Position numbers and translations under genes: made by a program. The notes under the pieces were generated by a model, which ran no database searches, was not told where the DNA came from, and saw only the letters and a program-made list of their open reading frames with translations. A stretch of DNA of 64,000 nt from Candidatus Vogelbacteria bacterium RIFOXYD1_FULL_44_32 (GTDB lineage Bacteria; Patescibacteriota; Minisyncoccia; Phycocordibacterales; XYD1-FULL-46-19), in the NCBI GenBank assembly GCA_001823065.1, contig MHTJ01000002.1, positions 53,532 to 117,531 on the forward strand, in the 5' to 3' direction. Below, piece after piece: positions 2,871 through 55,762 of the stretch. The first letter of the stretch is position 1. Every line of letters starts with the position of its first letter.

Positions 2871-3731
2871 TTAGTTATAACTATCAATCCTTCCATCATT
2901 ATTTTGGTCATAGAAGCAGGACGGCCCATAATCCATCCAGCAATACTGATACTGAGTTCCATAACCATAATTAGAGGGGTTTACTGCATCAGGTCTTCCT
3001 AAGCGGTACACCAGTATGTCGTAAGGCATACCAATCCAAATCTTTCCAGCCGCCAGAAGCTCGCACTCCTCTTTAGTCCACTCAGGGTGCGCCTTACAAG
3101 CACGACCAGCTGGACTACGGTTATAGGCTTCCAAGTCAGCCTTGGCTTTCGCTGTTTTAGCCGCTATTTCAGCCTTACGCTTACGTTCTGCCGCCTCCTC
3201 TGCCTTTTCCTTGTCTACTCGTTCTTCTGGCGTTAAAGTGCGATTTATGACCAACTCAGCTTTCCCCGTCTTATCCTCCCTGGCTGTCTCCAGAAACACT
3301 ATTGTCCTTTCCTTTTTAACTGGTAGTTCAAATTCAAAGTTACCCTTTTTATCGACCTCCACAGCTTTTTTAAGGTGGCTCAGGCTGGAGTCTTTCGGTC
3401 TAACATAGCCTTTAATTGTCACCAATGTTGAAGTCCCAACAGAAAACTCGTTTTCGGGTTCAGTAATTCTTATGGAAGGAGCTCGATGAGAGTAGGCATA
3501 TGAAGACATCGAGAGCATAAATATTCCAAGAATCACGGCTACCGTCTTCTTTTGTTTGAGGTTTATCCTGTCCTCGTATTTATACAAATAGAAAAGCATA
3601 GCCAGGGGTATTCCTAAATACCAATAGGCAATAACAAACGCTATAAAGAAAATCACCAATAACCCTCCCAGGGAAAACTTAGCCAATTTCACCACCCTAC
3701 CAATTAGAGATTTTATTTTGCTTGATTCCAT
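2871..3731 (-). CDS. membrane protein with Ig-like beta domain, coiled coil and Cys-containing C-terminal domain
   Basis: Two N-terminal TM helices; Lys/Glu/Ala-rich coiled coil; C-terminal GMPYDILVYRLGRPD...YQYCW. Confidence 0.55.
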   Translation of the reverse strand: MESSKIKSLIGRVVKLAKFSLGGLLVIFFIAFVIAYWYLGIPLAMLFYLYKYEDRINLKQKKTVAVILGIFMLSMSSYAYSHRAPSIRITEPENEFSVGTSTLVTIKGYVRPKDSSLSHLKKAVEVDKKGNFEFELPVKKERTIVFLETAREDKTGKAELVINRTLTPEERVDKEKAEEAAERKRKAEIAAKTAKAKADLEAYNRSPAGRACKAHPEWTKEECELLAAGKIWIGMPYDILVYRLGRPDAVNPSNYGYGTQYQYCWMDYGPSCFYDQNNDGRIDSYN

Positions 3732-3914
3732 AGCTGGAAATTAAGAACCAAAAAGCCCACCACAAGTGAGGCCAAATGGCCCTACCTAAGTTTCCCTAGG
3801 TAACGTTCCAGACGCCCTTGTGATGGGGTTTTTGTCTGGAACGCTTTGCGACCATACCGTAGAAAAGTAAATTTCTACGGGTTAGGTCTTAATAAATTGT
3901 TATCCTGATATTAA

Positions 3915-3946
3915 CAAAAAACCCCACCAGTGGCTACCCTGGTGAG
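3915..3946 (-). terminator. Rho-independent terminator downstream of the ImmA operon
   Basis: Minus-strand caccagg-gtagcca-ctggtg hairpin followed by a T-run. Confidence 0.5.
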
Positions 3947-3968
3947 ACAGAGGCAAACCCAAGCTATG

Positions 3969-4475
3969 TTATTTTTCTTTTTGGGATTTTTGATTGTTCT
4001 CAGGGAATAAGTGTTTTACAGCAATCAATAACATTATAGTTATCTGCGATATTGTTGCCGTTACTAGCAAACGGAAACTCCAGTCCTCAAGATAAAAGAA
4101 CTTCCCAGGCCTGTTTGTATCTACTCCTTGTAAAAAAGCGAGGATAAAAATGACGGTCGTTTCTATTCCTAAAAAAATAAACAGCCGATTCAGTGTGACC
4201 TTTTTTAAAGAAATATCCTGCTCTAAAGCATCATTGGCTAAGGATTTTGCCCTTTGTTCCTCCTTGTCTTCAATTTTTTCCGCTATCCTCTTTCTGGTTA
4301 CAAATGGGGTATTATATGACTGATTAAATATCCCTGGACGGCTGCCCTTCTGATGATTTAGGAGCCTCTTTTTTATTTCCTCCACCTCATTTTGTGCATC
4401 AGAGTATATCCTACTTGTTATACCTGGCTCTGAGTCGGGAACCACCTTTTTATCAGGAGGTGTCATACTAGTCAT
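3969..4475 (-). CDS. hypothetical membrane protein (soluble N-terminus, 2 C-terminal TM helices), co-operonic with ImmA
   Basis: Overlaps the ImmA gene by 8 bp; TM helices FIFLGIETTVIFILAFL and LLVTATISQITIMLLIAV. Confidence 0.55.
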   Translation of the reverse strand: MTSMTPPDKKVVPDSEPGITSRIYSDAQNEVEEIKKRLLNHQKGSRPGIFNQSYNTPFVTRKRIAEKIEDKEEQRAKSLANDALEQDISLKKVTLNRLFIFLGIETTVIFILAFLQGVDTNRPGKFFYLEDWSFRLLVTATISQITIMLLIAVKHLFPENNQKSQKEK

Positions 4476-5007
4476 TAGCTAAGCCAAGTTTCTCTAATCT
4501 AATTGCCATAGCAACAACGGAAACATTAAATATTTCTGCACATTCTTTAACATCTCCAACTTTACCCCAAGCGTCCCTGACCAAATCTTCTGGCATTATT
4601 AACGACGCCGCAAAATTATTAGCCTCAATTTCTAGCTTTGTCCCTATGGCGTCATCTAAACGAAAAAGGGTTCTACCTCCATCCAAAGTGCCTTCTCCGT
4701 CTATCATTATTTCTTCACTCTTAATAAATTCGGAATGCAGAAAAAGGTGGCCCAACTCGTGAGCTACAGTAAAATACTGCCTGGTTTTAGGTTTACTGCG
4801 GTTTATATAGATAGAAAAGGAGTCATTGTCTTTGTTATAGCTTATTGCCCCAGATATTTTATCTTCCAAGAGATTAGTGTAAATAATCTCCAAATCCTTT
4901 CTCCCTCTTTCTATATTTTCAAATGGAAAGGGGGAGACATTATCAGGATTATATAATTCCCTTTTTTCGTTAGCTTTTTTTATCGCTAAATTTACGTCTG
5001 CTTCCAT
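4468..5007 (-). CDS. ImmA/IrrE family zinc metallopeptidase (DUF955)
   Basis: HEXXH motif in TVAHELGHLFLH; the length and surrounding residues fit the ImmA/IrrE family. Confidence 0.75.
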   Translation of the reverse strand: MEADVNLAIKKANEKRELYNPDNVSPFPFENIERGRKDLEIIYTNLLEDKISGAISYNKDNDSFSIYINRSKPKTRQYFTVAHELGHLFLHSEFIKSEEIMIDGEGTLDGGRTLFRLDDAIGTKLEIEANNFAASLIMPEDLVRDAWGKVGDVKECAEIFNVSVVAMAIRLEKLGLAND

Positions 5008-5629: not shown

Positions 5630-7141
5630 TTAAAATGGTTTCAATTCATTTCCCGTTTCAACTGTTGATAGCTTTTTTTGTTTAGCTGGCCGAGCAAAAA
5701 TAATTAAGGGCAGATATAAAATTATTATTAACCAGATTGACACTGGCGGTACTAAAACCGAAGCCAGCGGTAGATGACTAAATATTTTTACTACTCCTAG
5801 CACATAAGCCAATAAGAAATAAGTTCCACTGCCTGCTATAAACGCTAAACTAGGAGAAACAAAACCCAGTATCCCCGCGATAAAACCAACCAACATCGTC
5901 AGGGGAATAAATGGCACCACTAAAATATTGGCCGGCAAAGCGACCAAACTTATTTCGCCAATTTTATAAAACAACCAAGGCGTCACCGCCAATTGAGCAG
6001 ACAAGGTGGCCGAAACGATTGCTCGTAAACCATATTGGTCCGTGAGCCAAGTCAACTTAGCTTCGAGCGGGGCCGATAAATAGATCAAGCCCAAAGTGGC
6101 CAAAAATGATAATTGAAAGCCGGTATCATTGGCTAAAATAAGAGGATTGTAGAGCACCATTAAAACCCCAGCAATAAACAGCCCTACAGTAGCACTATAT
6201 ATTCGCCCGGTGGCTCGCGCCCAGACGGCAAGTAAGGCCATCAGAGAGGCCCGCACCACGGTCGGTCCCCCGCCAACCATTAGCGCAAATAATATTATAC
6301 TGACCGCTCCTGCCAGTAAGGTTAAATTAAAACTTAAAAAATAGGCCAGAAAAATCATTAGGGCCTCGGCCACAATCGTCATATTGTACCCCGACAAAAC
6401 CACAATATGGACCAACCCCGCCCGCCGAAAATCAGTCGTAATTTCCTCTCCTAACCCCCGCCTCTCTCCCACCAAAAGCCCCGCCAGTAAAGAAGAATGT
6501 GGTTCCGGTAAGGCTAGATTCACCTGCTCAATAAATTTATTTTTGAGGGCCAATAACCAAGTTAAAATATAATTACCCTGCCCTTGGTCAATAATTTCAA
6601 TCTTGGCCAAAGACATTTGATAATGAATATCTCTGACTTTTAAATAGGAAATATAATCAAACTCCCGCCCGCTATCTGTAATAAAGTTTGTTGGTAAAGC
6701 CACCAGACCAGTAATTTTCAAAACATCACCATAATTAATCTTTTTATATGGTGAGGTCGAAACCAAAATCTTTTCCTTTGAGTCTACCAGACGCACTACC
6801 AGACGAGTGGTTGTATCCCGTTCATCGGGACTTTCAACCACCACTCCCATCATTTCCTGTTTCTGCCCCACCTTATCAACTAAAACCGAATTAAAAACTA
6901 TAGATGATTGTAACCGCCATACCCCCAAACCAAAACCGAGGCCGAGGCAGGCCAAATAAATATAGGGCAAAAATTTACGCCCCCGTAAAAAATATAGGGC
7001 TAAAAAAATTGGGGTTAAAATTATTAGGGCCAATAAATCATTGACCTCAAATTCTAGCGCCCCCGCACCCAAAACACCGGCGAGAAAACCTATAGCTAAA
7101 TAAAATAAAACCTGACGAAAAAGTGATAAATTTACTCCCAT
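5630..7141 (-). CDS. comEC: ComEC/Rec2 competence channel protein (short form, no metallo-beta-lactamase domain)
   Basis: GLVHIVVLSGYNMTIVAEA competence-domain motif; polytopic membrane protein of 503 aa. Confidence 0.8.
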   Translation of the reverse strand: MGVNLSLFRQVLFYLAIGFLAGVLGAGALEFEVNDLLALIILTPIFLALYFLRGRKFLPYIYLACLGLGFGLGVWRLQSSIVFNSVLVDKVGQKQEMMGVVVESPDERDTTTRLVVRLVDSKEKILVSTSPYKKINYGDVLKITGLVALPTNFITDSGREFDYISYLKVRDIHYQMSLAKIEIIDQGQGNYILTWLLALKNKFIEQVNLALPEPHSSLLAGLLVGERRGLGEEITTDFRRAGLVHIVVLSGYNMTIVAEALMIFLAYFLSFNLTLLAGAVSIILFALMVGGGPTVVRASLMALLAVWARATGRIYSATVGLFIAGVLMVLYNPLILANDTGFQLSFLATLGLIYLSAPLEAKLTWLTDQYGLRAIVSATLSAQLAVTPWLFYKIGEISLVALPANILVVPFIPLTMLVGFIAGILGFVSPSLAFIAGSGTYFLLAYVLGVVKIFSHLPLASVLVPPVSIWLIIILYLPLIIFARPAKQKKLSTVETGNELKPF

Positions 7142-29874: not shown

Positions 29875-30393
29875 CTACGGCCGAGGTGGCGCCAAGGCAA
29901 GCGAAAGAGACTTGTTTTTAAACCTCTTATCACTTGTTACGTCGACCGCCAGCTTTGCCCAATCTGGCAGGGTAAAGTTATGAGCTTCCTCCTCTGTTTT
30001 GAACTCGCACTCAAGCACCACTAGTCCCGCCAAATAGCCAGTGTACTCGTCGAGCTCTAGCACAAGCTGACCAAATTTGAAAAAATACCGGTTCTTGTTG
30101 ACGGTCCTCCCCACAGCCAGCGGCCGAAGACTGTCGTAAATAACCCTCGGTAGTTCTACTTCAGTCTCTTGCCGAACCAGGCCCTCGCCTTTTTTGACAG
30201 TCAAAAAGTACTTCCGACCAGACCGACGAACCCGCGTCTCCCCCTCTTCTGCAGGTAGGTATGCCTGCTCGATAAAAAGGCACGGAACTTGGTTGTGGTC
30301 GACATAAACCACAAGTGGCGGCATTGTTGGCAACCAAAACTTCCGTTCAATTTCATAGCCGATAGGGTTACTCATCTCTCCCTCCCTTGTCAA
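29875..30393 (-). CDS. CYTH-domain protein (CyaB / thiamine-triphosphatase-like)
   Basis: EIERKF signature near the N-terminus; 172 aa. Confidence 0.8.
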   Translation of the reverse strand: MTREGEMSNPIGYEIERKFWLPTMPPLVVYVDHNQVPCLFIEQAYLPAEEGETRVRRSGRKYFLTVKKGEGLVRQETEVELPRVIYDSLRPLAVGRTVNKNRYFFKFGQLVLELDEYTGYLAGLVVLECEFKTEEEAHNFTLPDWAKLAVDVTSDKRFKNKSLSLALAPPRP

Positions 30394-46609: not shown

Positions 46610-47257
46610 ATGACAAAACTCGAACGGACCCTGTTGAGAAAAGGGGTTCTGGTGTTGATGCAATGCTGGGAAGATAAAATAATGGCACCAGGATTTGTTT
46701 CCTGGGACATCAAGCAGGCAAGAAAACTCTTTGCTTGCACAATCTTCCAAGCGTCATGTTCCTGCTTGGGAATATTAGCGAGGGCACTTGAAAGCCCAAG
46801 GATGGCCGGATCCTGTGTCGTACTTATCATAATGTGCGCACTTTGGGTATATTTGACCACCAAAACATTTCACCAAGAATTTCCTGAGGCCGACTCTATA
46901 CGTAACATAAGAAAGGCCCATGGCTATTCCCAATTTTCTTCGGCTCTGACTTGGTTTCTGAAAGACAAGCAGTCCTTAGAGTTACAATTGGGTTTTAACA
47001 CTGGCACCCTCTCTGACAATTCACTCAACCTACTAAAAAGCGGCGCGACCGAGCGTATGGTGATTTTGGCTTATGCGGTCCTTGTCGCCCAAGACAAGAG
47101 TGGCGTCGGCAGCCCAGAAGCCCTAGGAAGAATGGATTTTCTCAGGGAATCACAAAAAATACTCCTGAGATTTAATCTCATCGGAGAAGACTGGACCCCG
47201 TACTTTGACACCGCCAAAGAAAGGTATGGGCGGGAAAAAAAGTCTGCCACAACATAA
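46610..47257 (+). CDS. hypothetical Cys-rich protein
   Basis: Good SD (ggaaaggaga, 7 nt upstream); 215 aa. Confidence 0.55.
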   Translation: MTKLERTLLRKGVLVLMQCWEDKIMAPGFVSWDIKQARKLFACTIFQASCSCLGILARALESPRMAGSCVVLIIMCALWVYLTTKTFHQEFPEADSIRNIRKAHGYSQFSSALTWFLKDKQSLELQLGFNTGTLSDNSLNLLKSGATERMVILAYAVLVAQDKSGVGSPEALGRMDFLRESQKILLRFNLIGEDWTPYFDTAKERYGREKKSATT

Positions 47258-47328: not shown

Positions 47329-47636
47329 TTCCCAACCCAGCGAACCCTCCTTTTTTTTGATTGTTGTGAAAGAAGTGACCTGTTTCCGCAACCGAGCGAG
47401 CCTAGTTCTGTTCCAAAACCTTGCGGAGGTGTCGGCCCGCCCGCCATCGCAAGCTCAGGCGTTGCGGGCGGGCCGGCAGGGTTTTGGCCTTGGGTATTTA
47501 CTCCAGCAGGAGCTAGGAAATGTTTTTCGCCGAGCCTTGCGCAAGGGCGACGGCCCGAGCAGAGCAAATTTTCAGCAGAAAATTATGTGTGCTCGCCGAA
47601 AAACATTTCCGAGCGACCTTATCCACAGGTAGATTG

Positions 47637-47666
47637 TTGACTAGTGAACGCTTGTTCACCTATACT
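47637..47666 (+). promoter_or_regulatory. SOS promoter: TTGACT, 18-nt spacer containing a LexA box GAAC-GCTT-GTTC (47646-47657; full palindrome gtgaacgcttgttcac), TATACT
   Basis: Cheo-type GAAC-N4-GTTC operator embedded in the spacer of a sigma70-like promoter directly upstream of the lexA operon. Confidence 0.7.
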
Positions 47667-47709
47667 ATAAACAAGCCAAACGGCCCTTATAAAAATAATT
47701 TAAATAAAT

Positions 47710-47904
47710 ATGACCTACCAACAATACACCAAATCTATTCAACGCGAACTGTCAGACATTAACCAAATCATTGACCGTAAAATAATCCACGGGCTGTCTT
47801 ACCGCCGGGAATCGCTCCGGCACAAGCGCCTAATTAGCGAGCTACGCCGGCGCCGCTCGACCAGTGGCTGGCGGTCCCTAATGTCTTTCGTTTCACTCTT
47901 CTAA
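47710..47904 (+). CDS. small Arg-rich protein (64 aa), first gene of the putative SOS operon
   Basis: MTYQQYTKSIQRELSDINQIIDRKIIHGLSYRRESLRHKRLISELRRRRSTSGWRSLMSFVSLF; lies between the LexA box and lexA. Confidence 0.4.
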   Translation: MTYQQYTKSIQRELSDINQIIDRKIIHGLSYRRESLRHKRLISELRRRRSTSGWRSLMSFVSLF

Positions 47905-47936
47905 TAAATAGCCGAGAAAATGTTAAAATCTATCTA

Positions 47937-51852: not shown

Positions 51853-52127
51853 TAGGATTAAAACTACCCAAACAAAAACAAGCTTTTCCCGAAAAGCCTT
51901 GAAAATAAACGATATTTTACCGAAACGGCCACTTTTTGGCCTCGGTTTTGTAAATTTTCCTAAAATAAGCCTTGTTTTATATGGTAATTTCCGGGTATTC
52001 GGCCAGAATATGTTGGAAAATAACGATTTTCCCGGATATTAACCCTAGTGTCTCCCAACCTCTAAATGGTACCAAACCTATAAGAAATGACAACTAAAAA
52101 CGTAAGCCATGTGGAAAACTACTTTCA

Positions 52128-52156
52128 TTGACTTTTTTATATATAAATGCTATTAT
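52128..52156 (+). promoter_or_regulatory. near-consensus sigma70 promoter for the GC-rich islet
   Basis: TTGACT, 17-nt spacer, TATTAT; GGAGGAGAAA SD before the ATG at 52239. Confidence 0.55.
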
Positions 52157-52238
52157 ATTAAGTAGGCACAATATGGCATAGTGGGAATAATATCCCCGCT
52201 ACTACTTATTCAACCGCACCCTGACAACGGAGGAGAAA

Positions 52239-52685
52239 ATGAATACGTACGACCTGAAGAAAAAGCATCGTGTATCGGTGTGGATGAGTGATGATCAGTT
52301 CGACTTTTTCCTTGAACTCTGGTTTGCCAAAAAGCAGACCATTGCGGAAATTGTCGGGATGATTGAGCGAGTCGCGGACCTGTCGGCCCACGGTCTCGCT
52401 CCAACCTTCACCAATGTTCAGAAATTCTGCCGGTTTATGGACCTGCAATTTCCTGAACTTAGTGACAGGGAGGCGGTCCATTCACGACGACTCCAGCGTT
52501 ACATTGAGGACGACCGGTGTGTTTCTGCGAGTGAGTATTCAGGCTTTGAAGGGCGGCGGAATTTCCTGTCGGCCATTCTGACTGAAATCAAGGAGGTGCT
52601 AGAGAAGGATGAGGACAATGGCCCGCGTTTCGCGGACAGCTACTGGTTCAACCAGTACCGCCGGGCACTGAAAGAGAAACTTTAA
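52239..52685 (+). CDS. hypothetical protein, paralog 1 of a tandem pair (GC-rich, atypical codon usage)
   Basis: C-terminal DSYWFNQYRRALKEKL matches GAYWYKQYQGALELRRE of the next gene; local GC is clearly above the flanks. Confidence 0.65.
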   Translation: MNTYDLKKKHRVSVWMSDDQFDFFLELWFAKKQTIAEIVGMIERVADLSAHGLAPTFTNVQKFCRFMDLQFPELSDREAVHSRRLQRYIEDDRCVSASEYSGFEGRRNFLSAILTEIKEVLEKDEDNGPRFADSYWFNQYRRALKEKL

Positions 52686-52703
52686 AGAAGGGAAGGAAAC
52701 CGT

Positions 52704-53030
52704 ATGTTGAAGTCAGAAGTGAGCAGCTGTCTGAGTGAACTCCAGACGCTTGTCCGAGGGTTTGCCTTCGCTGTGTACTCGGGCGTGTTTGAACATCCGG
52801 AATCAGTAGAAGAGTTCGCCCTCAGCCTCCAGACCTTTTCCGAGTTCTTCTACGGATTGAAGCACTCGGACGACCCGACCTATGTGTCCGGGGAGTACGG
52901 GGACTATATCGGCTTACTTGTCGATCTCAAGTACCAACTTGAGCTCCTCGAGGATGACGAACGGCTCAGTGGTGCCTACTGGTATAAGCAATACCAGGGA
53001 GCACTTGAACTTCGTCGAGAAGCTGACTGA
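52704..53030 (+). CDS. hypothetical protein, paralog 2 of the tandem pair
   Basis: Shared C-terminal YW(F/Y)xQYxxAL motif; SD gaagggaagg. Confidence 0.65.
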   Translation: MLKSEVSSCLSELQTLVRGFAFAVYSGVFEHPESVEEFALSLQTFSEFFYGLKHSDDPTYVSGEYGDYIGLLVDLKYQLELLEDDERLSGAYWYKQYQGALELRREAD

Positions 53031-53240
53031 ACGTATTTTTGTCCAACATTGTTTGTTCGCAACCATCACCCGAACTTAGGGAGGTGGTTTTATTTTACCT
53101 AAAAATTATTTTAGTAATTAAATTTCTTTCTCCAACACAACATCCATTATTTTATAACCTTCTTTTTTGTATACATTTAAGGCTCTCTCATTTAAAGATG
53201 AGCCCACCAGTCTCAATCTTTTTACACCTTGGAGCAGAAG

Positions 53241-53265
53241 AAAAAGCCCGCTGGGGCTTTTTCTG
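53241..53265. terminator. Rho-independent terminator
   Basis: aaaaagccc-gctg-gggcttttt. Confidence 0.6.
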
Positions 53266-53401
53266 TGTTTGGAAAGGGAAGCTAGACGAGCCGAGCACCA
53301 CTTCAGAATATTATATAAAGTTACCTTTAAAGTTTTGGGGTTCAAATACCGTGATTCTACCTCTTACCTTTTTGTCTGAAGTGGGGCTTCGGCGAGCGTC
53401 C

Positions 53402-55762
53402 TTATTGTCTCAAGCGGAAAAGAATTTCTTGTTCCACCTGACCTAAATCTCGCCCGTAGGTAAGGCGCGACAGCTCTTTGAGTTGTTCCGCCAGCTCGCG
53501 GGAGCCACCATCGACCCGAGGCACTTTAATATTGAAAGGTTTGGCTGGCTCACCATTTATTAAAATTTTTAAATAAGCATTTTGATTTTCAATGGAAATT
53601 AAATCATTTTCCGTAAAGGTCTGGCCGAAATGTTTGACTAAATGTTCAGCATCAGTGGTACCCACCCGAAAAGCGGCTAGCGAACCAACGTTGCCAAAAA
53701 CTGCCTCACGAATTTCATCGGTGAGTTGAGCAATAAATTGGTGCGCTAAAATTAAATTTAACCGATACTTCCGCGCTTCGGACAAAATAACCGAAATAGA
53801 GTCGGTGGTGAAATTTTGAAATTCATCAATGTATAAATAAAAATCTTTACGGTCATTTTCCGGAATATCAGTCCGCGACAAAGCCGCCAGTAGTAACCGC
53901 CCCGTACAAATCATCCCCAACAACCCGGCATTAATATCACCAATTTTACCTTTAGCAAGGTTCACCAACAAAATCTTCCGTCCATCCATTACTTCGCGGA
54001 AATTAAAGGCCGACTTAGGCTGGCCAATAATCGGTCGCATATAATCGTTGGCAATAAAATTACCAAACTTGGAGGTAATATAGGGCGTCATATTGGCCAG
54101 GCCCTGCTCACCGGTCGTTTTAGACGCTTCTTTTTCCCAAAAATCAATCACAGTTGGATTACTAATCCGCCCCAACTTTTTATTACGAAAAGCCGGGTCG
54201 GTAAATATCCGGGGTACCTCCATTAGGGTCGCCGGTTCATATTTGGCGTCTTCCATCAACAAAAGGAGGGAATTCCTCATATATTGCTCAAACATTGGCC
54301 CCATCGTCTCTTTATCAAACAACCGGTTGAAGATAGATTGAATTTCGTTGACAATAAAAGTTTTTTCCTCGGGGCGGTCAAAGTTATATTCCAGCATATT
54401 TAGCCCCAAAGGCCGACCCACATCGCCCGGGTTGAAAACAATCACATCTTCGAGACGCGAAGCGGGGACTCGTTCCAAAACTTTGTCCACCAACTCACCG
54501 TGGGGGTCGATAACACACAGACCCTTGCCCGCCTCCATATCTTGAGCAATGGTATTTAACATAAAATACGATTTACCGGTACCAGTCTGACCAATACAAT
54601 AAAAATGGCGCCGGCGGTCATTGTCGGCCATCCGCACCGGCTTCATATCCCCCCGAAACAAACTTTCACCCACCACCACTCCAGCTGGAGGTAAATTTTG
54701 GGGTGGGGGGGCTTCCCGACTCTTTAGCCACTTGATCCGTGGAATATCCGTGGTCACAGTCGGAAAGTGAAAGATGCTAGCAATTTCCTCGGTATTTAAA
54801 ACTATAAACTCTTTTGGCTCTGACTCACGGAAAATATATTGATGCACCAATTTTTTTATTTTTTTACCCTTGGGCAAAACCAGCTTAAAGCCATTGCGCC
54901 GGGGTGAAGAAAATTGGCTAAAAGCCCCCCCGATGGCGAGCATAATATCACCAGCTTCATTGTCGGTATCACCAGCAGCTACCACCCGGACATTGACATT
55001 GAACAATGGTTTGCGAATCTTGGCTTCAATTGATTCAATCACTTCATTGTCAATCGGCGCTGAGTCTAATTTTTTATCATCATCTTTTTTAGATGAAGAA
55101 AACAATTCGCCGGCAATTTCTGACACGGGAGCAAAAGTTTTATAACTTTTTAATATTTTTTTTAGTTTTTCACCTTTCCTTAATTTGGCCACAATATCTA
55201 AAGCGGTTTTTTTAAATGACGTCCCAGCTGGTGAAATCACTAGTTGAAGGGCCGCCCCATCACCCTCTTCCCGTAGGCGTGATAAGGTCGAGACAATCGG
55301 GGCAAAAGAATCTACTTCCGCCTCTCGATAAGTACGAATCGGAACAAAAGGAGCTTCTTCCAGTGCCAAATAACCAGCTCGCACTCCATGCTCGTTGGCA
55401 AAAATAGTATAATCGGCCACTTCATCTACCTGGGAATCGGGGAAAAAACCTTGGATTTGGCGAGCAACAAACTCGAGCTGGTTCCGAGGCGCACCAACAT
55501 AAAAATAGATATCGCCCCCAGAGCTATGGACCGCTGTCTCTAAAACAAATGGTTCTTTAATAGCAGTTAAAGCTGACAAAAATTGCTCAAGTAAATTAAT
55601 ATCAAATAAAAAATCCTTCTGGTCCTTGGCTTCGCGCCGAGCAATTTTGACCAATAATATTTTAAGATTTAGTGAATCAAACCGTTGGCGGTGCCATAAA
55701 ATATAAACACCACCAGCCATTAGGCCTAAAATAATAATTAGTAAAATAAAATATACGGTCAT
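53402..55762 (-). CDS. membrane-anchored FtsK/HerA/VirD4-superfamily P-loop ATPase (T4SS coupling-protein-like or DUF87-like)
   Basis: N-terminal TM helix; Walker A GQTGTGKS; Walker B LYIDEFQNF; C-terminal ARKYRLNLILAHQFIAQL (the RKxGxxxxxAxQxxxQL motif of TrwB/VirD4 and HerA). Confidence 0.75.
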   Translation of the reverse strand: MTVYFILLIIILGLMAGGVYILWHRQRFDSLNLKILLVKIARREAKDQKDFLFDINLLEQFLSALTAIKEPFVLETAVHSSGGDIYFYVGAPRNQLEFVARQIQGFFPDSQVDEVADYTIFANEHGVRAGYLALEEAPFVPIRTYREAEVDSFAPIVSTLSRLREEGDGAALQLVISPAGTSFKKTALDIVAKLRKGEKLKKILKSYKTFAPVSEIAGELFSSSKKDDDKKLDSAPIDNEVIESIEAKIRKPLFNVNVRVVAAGDTDNEAGDIMLAIGGAFSQFSSPRRNGFKLVLPKGKKIKKLVHQYIFRESEPKEFIVLNTEEIASIFHFPTVTTDIPRIKWLKSREAPPPQNLPPAGVVVGESLFRGDMKPVRMADNDRRRHFYCIGQTGTGKSYFMLNTIAQDMEAGKGLCVIDPHGELVDKVLERVPASRLEDVIVFNPGDVGRPLGLNMLEYNFDRPEEKTFIVNEIQSIFNRLFDKETMGPMFEQYMRNSLLLLMEDAKYEPATLMEVPRIFTDPAFRNKKLGRISNPTVIDFWEKEASKTTGEQGLANMTPYITSKFGNFIANDYMRPIIGQPKSAFNFREVMDGRKILLVNLAKGKIGDINAGLLGMICTGRLLLAALSRTDIPENDRKDFYLYIDEFQNFTTDSISVILSEARKYRLNLILAHQFIAQLTDEIREAVFGNVGSLAAFRVGTTDAEHLVKHFGQTFTENDLISIENQNAYLKILINGEPAKPFNIKVPRVDGGSRELAEQLKELSRLTYGRDLGQVEQEILFRLRQ

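Follow-up and report, generated by a model that had tools for sequence, protein, structure and literature searches.

The segment at 52109–53097 (+) of a 64,000 nt stretch of the Candidatus Vogelbacteria bacterium RIFOXYD1_FULL_44_32 genome (contig MHTJ01000002.1, positions 53,532 to 117,531; the whole stretch is hereafter called the window) is a self-contained bicistronic cassette. It comprises a strong promoter, a conserved leader, two small open reading frames (ORF-A and ORF-B) and an intrinsic terminator, and is very probably a real, autonomous and mobile two-gene unit with no mobility genes of its own. Its autonomy is indicated by the presence of both promoter and terminator in the window and, likewise, in a distant lineage of the Candidate Phyla Radiation (CPR), represented by locus L006. 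The window genome, itself of the CPR/Parcubacteria, was assembled from a metagenome. Horizontal mobility is indicated by the atypical codons of the genes, by their occurrence in two unrelated chromosomal contexts, and by presence or absence of the pair between relatives with 85% DNA identity. The initial annotation had described a horizontally acquired islet, and the codon scores, the two contexts and the filled and empty sites described below support this, with the qualification that the islet is shared with one close relative.

ORF-A (52239–52685, +; OHA58874.1, A2571_00635) encodes a near-neutral protein of 148 aa (isoelectric point, pI, 6.0) that is predicted to be all-helical. ORF-B (52704–53030, +; A2571_00640) follows after a gap of 18 nt and encodes a very acidic protein of 108 aa (pI 4.4, net charge −12). 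These are the neighbouring genes of 148 and 108 aa that had been noticed previously. There is no long hydrophobic segment in either sequence, and the products are cytoplasmic helical proteins of an orphan family not described before. In ORF-A, the N-terminal 43 aa and the C-terminal 50 aa are conserved and the middle evolves fast, while the marks of ORF-B are the loop SDDPTYVSGEYGDYIG, which is conserved, and a YWYKQY helix at the C-terminus that includes its sole Trp (residue 93).

Both are real, constrained genes under purifying selection, as judged from their ratios of nonsynonymous to synonymous divergence (dN/dS 0.31 for ORF-A and 0.19 for ORF-B, relative to the related genome GCA_964539475.1, here L001, with about 80% DNA identity to the window), from N-terminal changes that are synonymous only, and from distant orthologues that are again paired. 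Public gene calls give ORF-B a length of 132 aa (loci L003 and L004; window 53028–53102), its TGA having been read through in a genetic code 4/25 call. The matching codon in L001 is TAA, so the standard code and the 108 aa ORF-B hold. A public call of 262 aa in L001 contains four stops under code 11.

The two genes differ in composition from the rest of the window. The GC content of ORF-A is 0.508 and that of ORF-B 0.526, compared to 0.441 for the window, and their GC content at third codon positions (GC3; 0.611 and 0.624) is the highest of 54 ORFs (mean 0.444, sd 0.080). The size of this GC3 excess is moderate (z about 2.1–2.2) and codon choice provides the stronger foreign signal: against a leave-one-out host model, the genes are clearly atypical, with z = −5.65 (ORF-A) and −5.60 (ORF-B), ranks 4 and 5 of 52. 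The higher GC and different codon preference of the initial annotation are therefore borne out. Marked shifts are seen towards TTC (58% in the pair vs 15%, Fisher p = 3e-5), AAG (64% vs 26%), CAG (73% vs 32%) and TAC (71% vs 30%). The preference for CTG, GAG and CGG that had been singled out earlier goes in the expected direction for all three codons, but the shift is weaker, and for GAG taken alone it is not significant (p = 0.09).

No other ORFs of the window prefer the codon model built for the other CPR lineage to that of the host as strongly as ORF-A and ORF-B do. The remaining ORFs with high GC3 are housekeeping genes (NusA, pyrophosphatase, trigger factor and ClpP), and the preferred codons of the pair differ from theirs (TTC 58% vs 10%, AAG 64% vs 27%, CAG 73% vs 40%, with GCG and GGG also raised), so translational selection does not explain the bias. 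In both Vogelbacteria-like lineages, the GC3 of the pair has stayed at 0.62–0.64, even though the flanking genes are saturated at silent sites (synonymous divergence, dS, of 1.2–2.9), indicating that the cassette has not ameliorated.

A word-indexed search of 5.8 billion protein clusters returned two clusters for each ORF, the protein itself and a single relative (P0002 for ORF-A, about 74–75% aa identity; P0004 for ORF-B, 91% aa identity). When hidden Markov models (HMM) were read against all 1.84 billion cluster representatives, only two distant proteins were added: P0007 (A-like, 119 aa; 37% identity to ORF-A over 107 aa) and P0006 (B-like, 101 aa; 44% identity to ORF-B over 96 aa). The pair is thus known from three CPR lineages only, at two unrelated chromosomal sites.

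A different CPR lineage (L005–L010) carries the genes for P0007 and P0006 (A′ and B′), adjacent and in the same A-then-B order, between its ftsA and ftsZ genes. The two share an overlap of 4 nt (ATGA), indicating coupled translation. The cassette of L006 has a promoter analogous to that of the window (TTGACA-17-TGcTAGGAT) and ends in a strong terminator (z = −4.5). In a relative of this lineage (L018–L020), the FtsA of which falls in the same 90% cluster as FtsA of the L006 lineage, ftsA and ftsZ are separated by 71 nt and the pair is absent, with 85% DNA identity on both sides. The L006 cassette is an 822 bp segment (6135–6956) that stands in place of 31 bp in the empty site. This clean difference between filled and empty site shows that the promoter, A, B and the terminator are gained or lost as one unit. 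Flanking direct or inverted repeats, sought as insertion scars, gave only short, weak matches.

In L001, the pair has the position that it has in the window, in the order LexA, LOG and LysM-M23, then A and B, then a GNAT acetyltransferase gene on the minus strand, a cysteine-cluster ORF (CxxCxxCC-like, 167 aa) and an ATPase gene. The LysM-M23 gene (LysM and Peptidase_M23 domains; NlpD/EnvC-like) is divergent from the pair. Acquisition is therefore not unique to the window genome; the cassette is shared by, or was exchanged between, two Vogelbacteria-like lineages. Universal presence at this site in relatives had been set out as a finding that would speak against an acquired islet, and homologs do occupy it in L001, the sole close relative at hand. 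The 90% clusters of the flanking proteins, which were inspected for more Vogelbacteria relatives, were all singletons.

Silent-site divergence between the two Vogelbacteria-like lineages is 3–6 times lower in the cassette (dS 0.52 for ORF-A and 0.32 for ORF-B) than in the flanking genes (LysM-M23, 1.2; LexA, 1.9; ATPase, 2.1; LOG, 2.9). At conserved residues, 15–21% of the codons differ in the pair, compared to 42–48% in the flanks. Conservation is uneven within ORF-A: the N-terminal 43 codons have a dS of 0.25, a dN of 0.029 and an omega (dN/dS) of 0.12, the 52 C-terminal codons a dS of 0.45 and an omega of 0.18, and the middle a dS of 0.88 and an omega of 0.47; changes in the first 15 codons are synonymous only. 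Either the cassette is younger than the lineage split and was exchanged between the lineages, or its silent sites are under selection. The sharp left edge near 52105 and the patchy conservation within genes fit neither model perfectly.

The cassette is transcribed from a predicted sigma-70-type promoter at 52128–52156 (+), with the hexamers TTGACT (52128–52133) and TATTAT (52151–52156) separated by 17 nt and an extended −10 element (TGc). It matches the consensus at 10 of 12 positions, agreeing with the near-perfect promoter of the initial annotation, and is 100% conserved in L001 and L002. The spacer contains a 12 nt palindrome, TTTATATATAAA (52136–52147). Just upstream of the −35 element, a conserved block (ATGTGGAAAACTACTTTCA, 52109–52127, +) forms the left edge of the highly conserved cassette; its counterpart in L001 and L002 is a perfect palindrome, GGAAAA-CTA-TTTTCC, making it a candidate operator. 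From this edge to the start of ORF-A (52109–52238) identity to L001 is 96%, compared to 71% in the adjacent spacer (51853–52108; P = 2e-13). On the minus strand, a promoter-like site (52152–52179, ATGCCA-16-TATAAT, 10/12) overlaps the cassette −10 element and faces the LysM-M23 gene; an overlap of divergent promoters may be one reason why 52109–52238 is so extremely conserved.

The predicted 5′ leader of about 75 nt (52163–52238, +), its start placed from the position of the −10 element, contains a 7 bp hairpin (52179–52201). It differs from the L001 leader by only three substitutions, and the single one in the stem changes A-U to G-U, so that pairing is kept. As a riboswitch or small RNA the leader had no Rfam match, and its fold is no better than those of shuffled sequences (z = −0.92). 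A Shine-Dalgarno (SD) sequence, GGAGGAG, precedes ORF-A (52229–52235, +), in keeping with the strong SD noted at the outset, and an SD-like sequence, GGGAAGGAAA, precedes ORF-B (52690–52699, +).

The 3′ end of the cassette is an intrinsic terminator at 53062–53097 (+), predicted by folding: a hairpin at 53062–53088 (ACCAUCACCC-GAACUUA-GGGAGGUGGU) followed by UUUUAUUUU. It was missed by a simple terminator scan because of one A-A mismatch, and it is kept in L001, with substitutions in the loop. The terminator of the initial annotation was thus correctly anticipated but not its bidirectional character, as this one is unidirectional and the only bidirectional-looking structure lies at 53239–53264, outside the islet as first delimited (52128–53030). 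That structure is a perfect 11 bp hairpin (AGAAAAAGCCC-GCTG-GGGCTTTTTCT; fold z = −4.1) with A and T runs in its stem, about 200 nt past the cassette terminator, in window-specific sequence absent from L001; it is probably a terminator serving the convergent ATPase gene. The 3′ tails of the two cassettes can also be aligned (window 53083–53112, GGTGGTTTTATTTTACCTAAAAATTATTTT; L006 6919–6949, GGTTGTTTTGTTTTTAAAAACAATTATTTT), with a score reached by 2 of 500 shuffles, and represent either a shared cassette end or convergent terminator tails.

The ATPase gene (53402–55762, −) encodes a membrane-anchored protein of the TraD/TrwB/HerA-like, DUF87 type (DUF8128 in the public record), with a strong match to phrog_5156 (2e-71) and weak matches to PADLOC models (mad8, 2.6e-13; HerA). 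The initial annotation had tentatively linked the pair to this gene and so to a conjugative or defence element, a link that the evidence does not support. Homology to L001 stops at 53229 and resumes at 53392, and the window is without about 1.26 kb that includes the cysteine-cluster ORF. All that is left of the GNAT gene is a 3′ remnant of 38 codons at 53118–53234 (−), outside the cassette (84% identity to L001 GNAT residues 122–159, E = 8e-20). The deletion that left only this remnant shows that the adjacency of pair and ATPase is secondary. The ATPase has host-typical codons (z = +2.75), and over the 273 C-terminal residues that could be aligned it shares 94% identity with its L001 counterpart (dN/dS 0.02); it is a native, core CPR gene. 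The ftsA-ftsZ site of the L006 lineage has no such ATPase. No integrase, relaxase or other type IV secretion genes were found near the pair, the neighbours in the window being LexA, DinB, LOG, LysM-M23, UvrD, KsgA, ComM and PNPase.

The earlier impression that the proteins belong to no recognisable family was confirmed by sequence, profile and fold-library searches. Six family members, ORF-A, ORF-B and their homologues, gave nothing below E = 0.04 against Pfam, NCBIfam, PHROGs and PADLOC, and the weak family-library matches were mutually unrelated. Profile matches of the pair in the PDB (LytH, E = 0.098; TIM8; capsid proteins) were at chance level, and comparison with fold libraries recovered no recognised relative. 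The pair had no matches in PADLOC, PHROGs, BFVD, IMG/VR, phage records or plasmid collections, and scans of GTDB genomes, JGI metagenomes, IMG/VR, phage records and plasmids yielded no further homologues. A 1646 aa protein matched in the HMM search (P0005) is a repeat protein with 13 weak stretches of similarity and was dismissed as spurious. A literature search on genes between ftsA and ftsZ, or on CPR division genes, turned up nothing relevant.

ORF-A and ORF-B are related to each other through a shared C-terminal motif, YWFNQYRRAL at residues 135–144 of ORF-A and YWYKQYQGAL at residues 92–101 of ORF-B, as first described from the sequence (YW(F/Y)xQYxxAL). BLASTP aligns 55 C-terminal aa of the two proteins at 33% identity (E = 3e-6), and hhalign comparison of the families, with three members each, gives Prob 82% and E = 1.1e-5 over 47 columns; homology is established for the C-terminal ~50 residues only. 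The order within the common module is a loop (E-Y-x-G-x-x-G), a helix, and YW[FY]xQ[YF]xxxL. A confident AlphaFold2 (AF2) model of ORF-B from a six-sequence alignment (pLDDT 80, pTM 0.74) has four predicted helices, at residues 2–25, 35–53, 72–79 and 90–107. The family signature is the loop SDD-x-x-Y-V-x-GEYG-x-[YF]-IG, which is conserved and was modelled with lower confidence, together with the aromatic C-terminal helix. The model of ORF-A from a two-sequence alignment (pLDDT 44) was unusable. Among the invariant columns of the family alignments no catalytic-type set of His, Arg or Lys is evident, which favours a binding role for ORF-B over an enzymatic one.

The N-terminus of ORF-A (KHRVSVWMSDDQFDFFLELWFAKKQTIAEIV) has a ribbon-helix-helix (RHH)-like pattern, beta-alpha-alpha-like in its predicted succession of elements. 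Compared by hhalign with an RHH profile that had been validated against the PDB, it scored weakly (Prob 17%, P = 0.0014) with the register correct, and sequence searches of Pfam and the PDB gave no RHH match.

The explanation that accounts best for these features overall, although it must be regarded as tentative, is that the cassette is a selfish or conflict module of two partner proteins. Among known kinds of system, a type II toxin-antitoxin (TA)-like module is the closest fit to its anatomy and population behaviour; that it is specifically such a module is possible but doubtful. ORF-A and ORF-B would work jointly, as a heteromer formed by way of the C-terminal helix that they have in common (YW[FY]xQ[YF]), a partnership suggested by their paralogous C-termini and their constant adjacency and order. 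ORF-A may autoregulate its own promoter region, given the strict conservation of the promoter, leader and ORF-A N-terminus and the presence of palindromes; candidate sites are GGAAAA-CTA-TTTTCC in L001 and L002 and TTTATATATAAA. ORF-A, encoded upstream, conserved at its N-terminus and fast-evolving in the middle, would serve as regulator or neutraliser; the effector would be ORF-B, which is encoded downstream, is the more conserved of the two and is well folded. A module of this kind could persist and spread without mobility genes of its own.

Like ParDE, RelBE and CcdAB, the cassette consists of two small, adjacent, coupled genes (an 18 nt gap in the window, a 4 nt overlap in L005–L010) under their own sigma-70 promoter with palindromes. 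It also resembles these systems in the absence of mobility genes, in its foreign composition, and in a patchy distribution (three lineages, with an insertion matched by an empty site in close relatives), as well as in combining an upstream protein of conserved N-terminus and variable middle with a more conserved downstream one. Several points weigh against this interpretation. Neither protein resembles a known TA, immunity or defence family, by sequence or by fold, in searches with six family members. Homology between the partners, here confined to their C-termini, is atypical for TA pairs. ORF-B is very acidic and has no evident catalytic residues, which points to a binding protein and not to a toxin with enzymatic activity. 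The RHH-like N-terminus of ORF-A lacks statistical confirmation (hhalign Prob 17%), and P0007, the distant orthologue, does not have it. Finally, the L005/L006 copy is codon-atypical too (z = −3.5 and −4.8) and is itself an insertion; that lineage was rejected as the donor.

The other explanations considered differ in how they read the same evidence. The homology of ORF-B to the C-terminal part of ORF-A alone recalls SinR/SinI, a pair encoded by adjacent genes in which the smaller protein is paralogous to the larger one's interaction domain. By analogy, ORF-A would be a DNA-binding regulator and ORF-B a copy of its C-terminal oligomerisation module, titrating ORF-A by heterodimerisation, the result being a small bistable or self-regulating switch acting on its own promoter and possibly on others. 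The additional, strongly conserved N-terminus of ORF-A, with its RHH register right (P = 0.0014), and the ultra-conserved promoter and leader with their palindromes are consistent with this. However, the RHH assignment falls short of significance (Prob 17%, and nothing in Pfam or PDB sequence searches), the segment is missing in P0007, and ORF-A yielded no helix-turn-helix or other recognised DNA-binding domain. Gene order, sizes and fold are unrelated to those of SinR/SinI, with no family match, and a regulator without targets moving alone into the ftsA-ftsZ spacer is hard to rationalise, making this explanation unlikely. The genomic contexts suggest instead that the pair could be accessory division or wall factors, modulating FtsZ/FtsA or septal peptidoglycan hydrolysis, since both ftsA|ftsZ and LysM-M23 are related to division or the wall, and the ftsA|ftsZ spacer is a single, specific site in that genome. 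This is rather improbable, as the pair is dispensable (a relative with 85% identity has ftsA-ftsZ without it), carries its own promoter and terminator in both lineages rather than being embedded in a division operon, and shows no likeness to ZapA, SepF, MciZ, SulA, YneA or others in Pfam and NCBIfam; its codon usage is foreign and no LexA box is nearby. A new class of CPR/Patescibacteria selfish module, in which a paralogous effector and neutraliser of new fold target the machinery of division or the septal wall as an addiction or regulatory cassette, would explain the two known contexts (ftsA|ftsZ and the LysM-M23 promoter region) but seems a long shot.

There is little probability that the genes are native and very highly expressed, their high GC3 and low dS being due to translational selection. 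The housekeeping nature of the other high-GC3 ORFs, the strong promoter and SD sequence, and the reduced dS would fit, but the codons preferred by the pair are unlike those of the housekeeping set, practically no other bacteria have the family, and in the other lineage the pair is an indel between close relatives. Least credible is an anti-restriction or anti-defence role for the pair as cargo carried by a conjugative or defence element that is tied to the TraD/HerA-like ATPase. ORF-B is small and very acidic, like the DNA-mimic anti-restriction proteins ArdA and Ocr, and the neighbouring gene encodes a membrane-anchored ATPase with weak PADLOC (mad8, HerA) and strong phrog_5156 matches. The acidity is confined to ORF-B (pI 4.4), which has no family or fold match to those proteins, is not found on a phage, plasmid or integrative and conjugative element, and occurs in an obligate pair with a near-neutral paralogue. 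The adjacency is deletion-derived and not conserved, the ATPase is native and strongly conserved, no other mobile-element, conjugation, phage or defence genes lie nearby, and the pair has no relatives in phages, plasmids, IMG/VR, BFVD, PHROGs or PADLOC. As two adjacent, paralogous, co-transcribed helical proteins of ~100 aa, with a P-loop membrane ATPase of the FtsK/HerA/TraD superclass that happens to be nearby in the window, ORF-A and ORF-B also bring to mind the WXG100 proteins EsxA and EsxB. They have no W-x-G motif (the only Trp of ORF-B is in YWYKQY) and no match to PF06013, the model of ORF-B is a four-helix domain and not a helical hairpin, and the ATPase is of the TraD/DUF87 type, not EssC/EccC, and is unlinked to the pair in other lineages.

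Small genes without annotation are very numerous in CPR bacteria, and among them this pair has unusually clean evolutionary evidence: a defined cassette of 0.8–1 kb, filled and empty sites, foreign composition and purifying selection identify it as a functional unit that can be transferred and not as noise in the annotation. If the module is TA-like or division-directed, the conflict systems would gain a new protein family and a variant architecture with paralogous partners, of which almost nothing is characterised in the CPR group; if it is only an orphan regulator, its interest would be local. The analysis also corrects a tempting but unsupported tie to the adjacent TraD/HerA-like ATPase.

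The pair is not the sole compositionally foreign spot in the window, as two further ORFs without Pfam matches (29875–30393 and 46610–47257) have strongly atypical codons (z = −6.7 and −5.1). In the region 2871–5007, which is possibly another acquired islet, the ORFs at 2871–3731 and 3969–4475 are as atypical as the pair (codon z = −5.9 and −5.7). A LOOT RNA (RF03000, 71.8 bits) is located there at 3769–3888, adjoining a 168 aa ORF that overlaps an ORF for an IrrE/ImmA-type M78 peptidase (4468–5007).

No LexA box is found near the A/B pair, and control of the pair by the SOS response was rejected, as the only promoter-associated box is the one upstream of lexA. This box, of the Gram-positive type (GAACGCTTGTTC, 47646–47657), lies between TTGACT and TATACT hexamers about 280 nt before lexA (region 47628–47936), and a 64 aa ORF (47710–47904) is situated between it and lexA. 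L001 is without dinB. In the window, the 64 aa ORF, lexA and dinB look like a single SOS-controlled operon.

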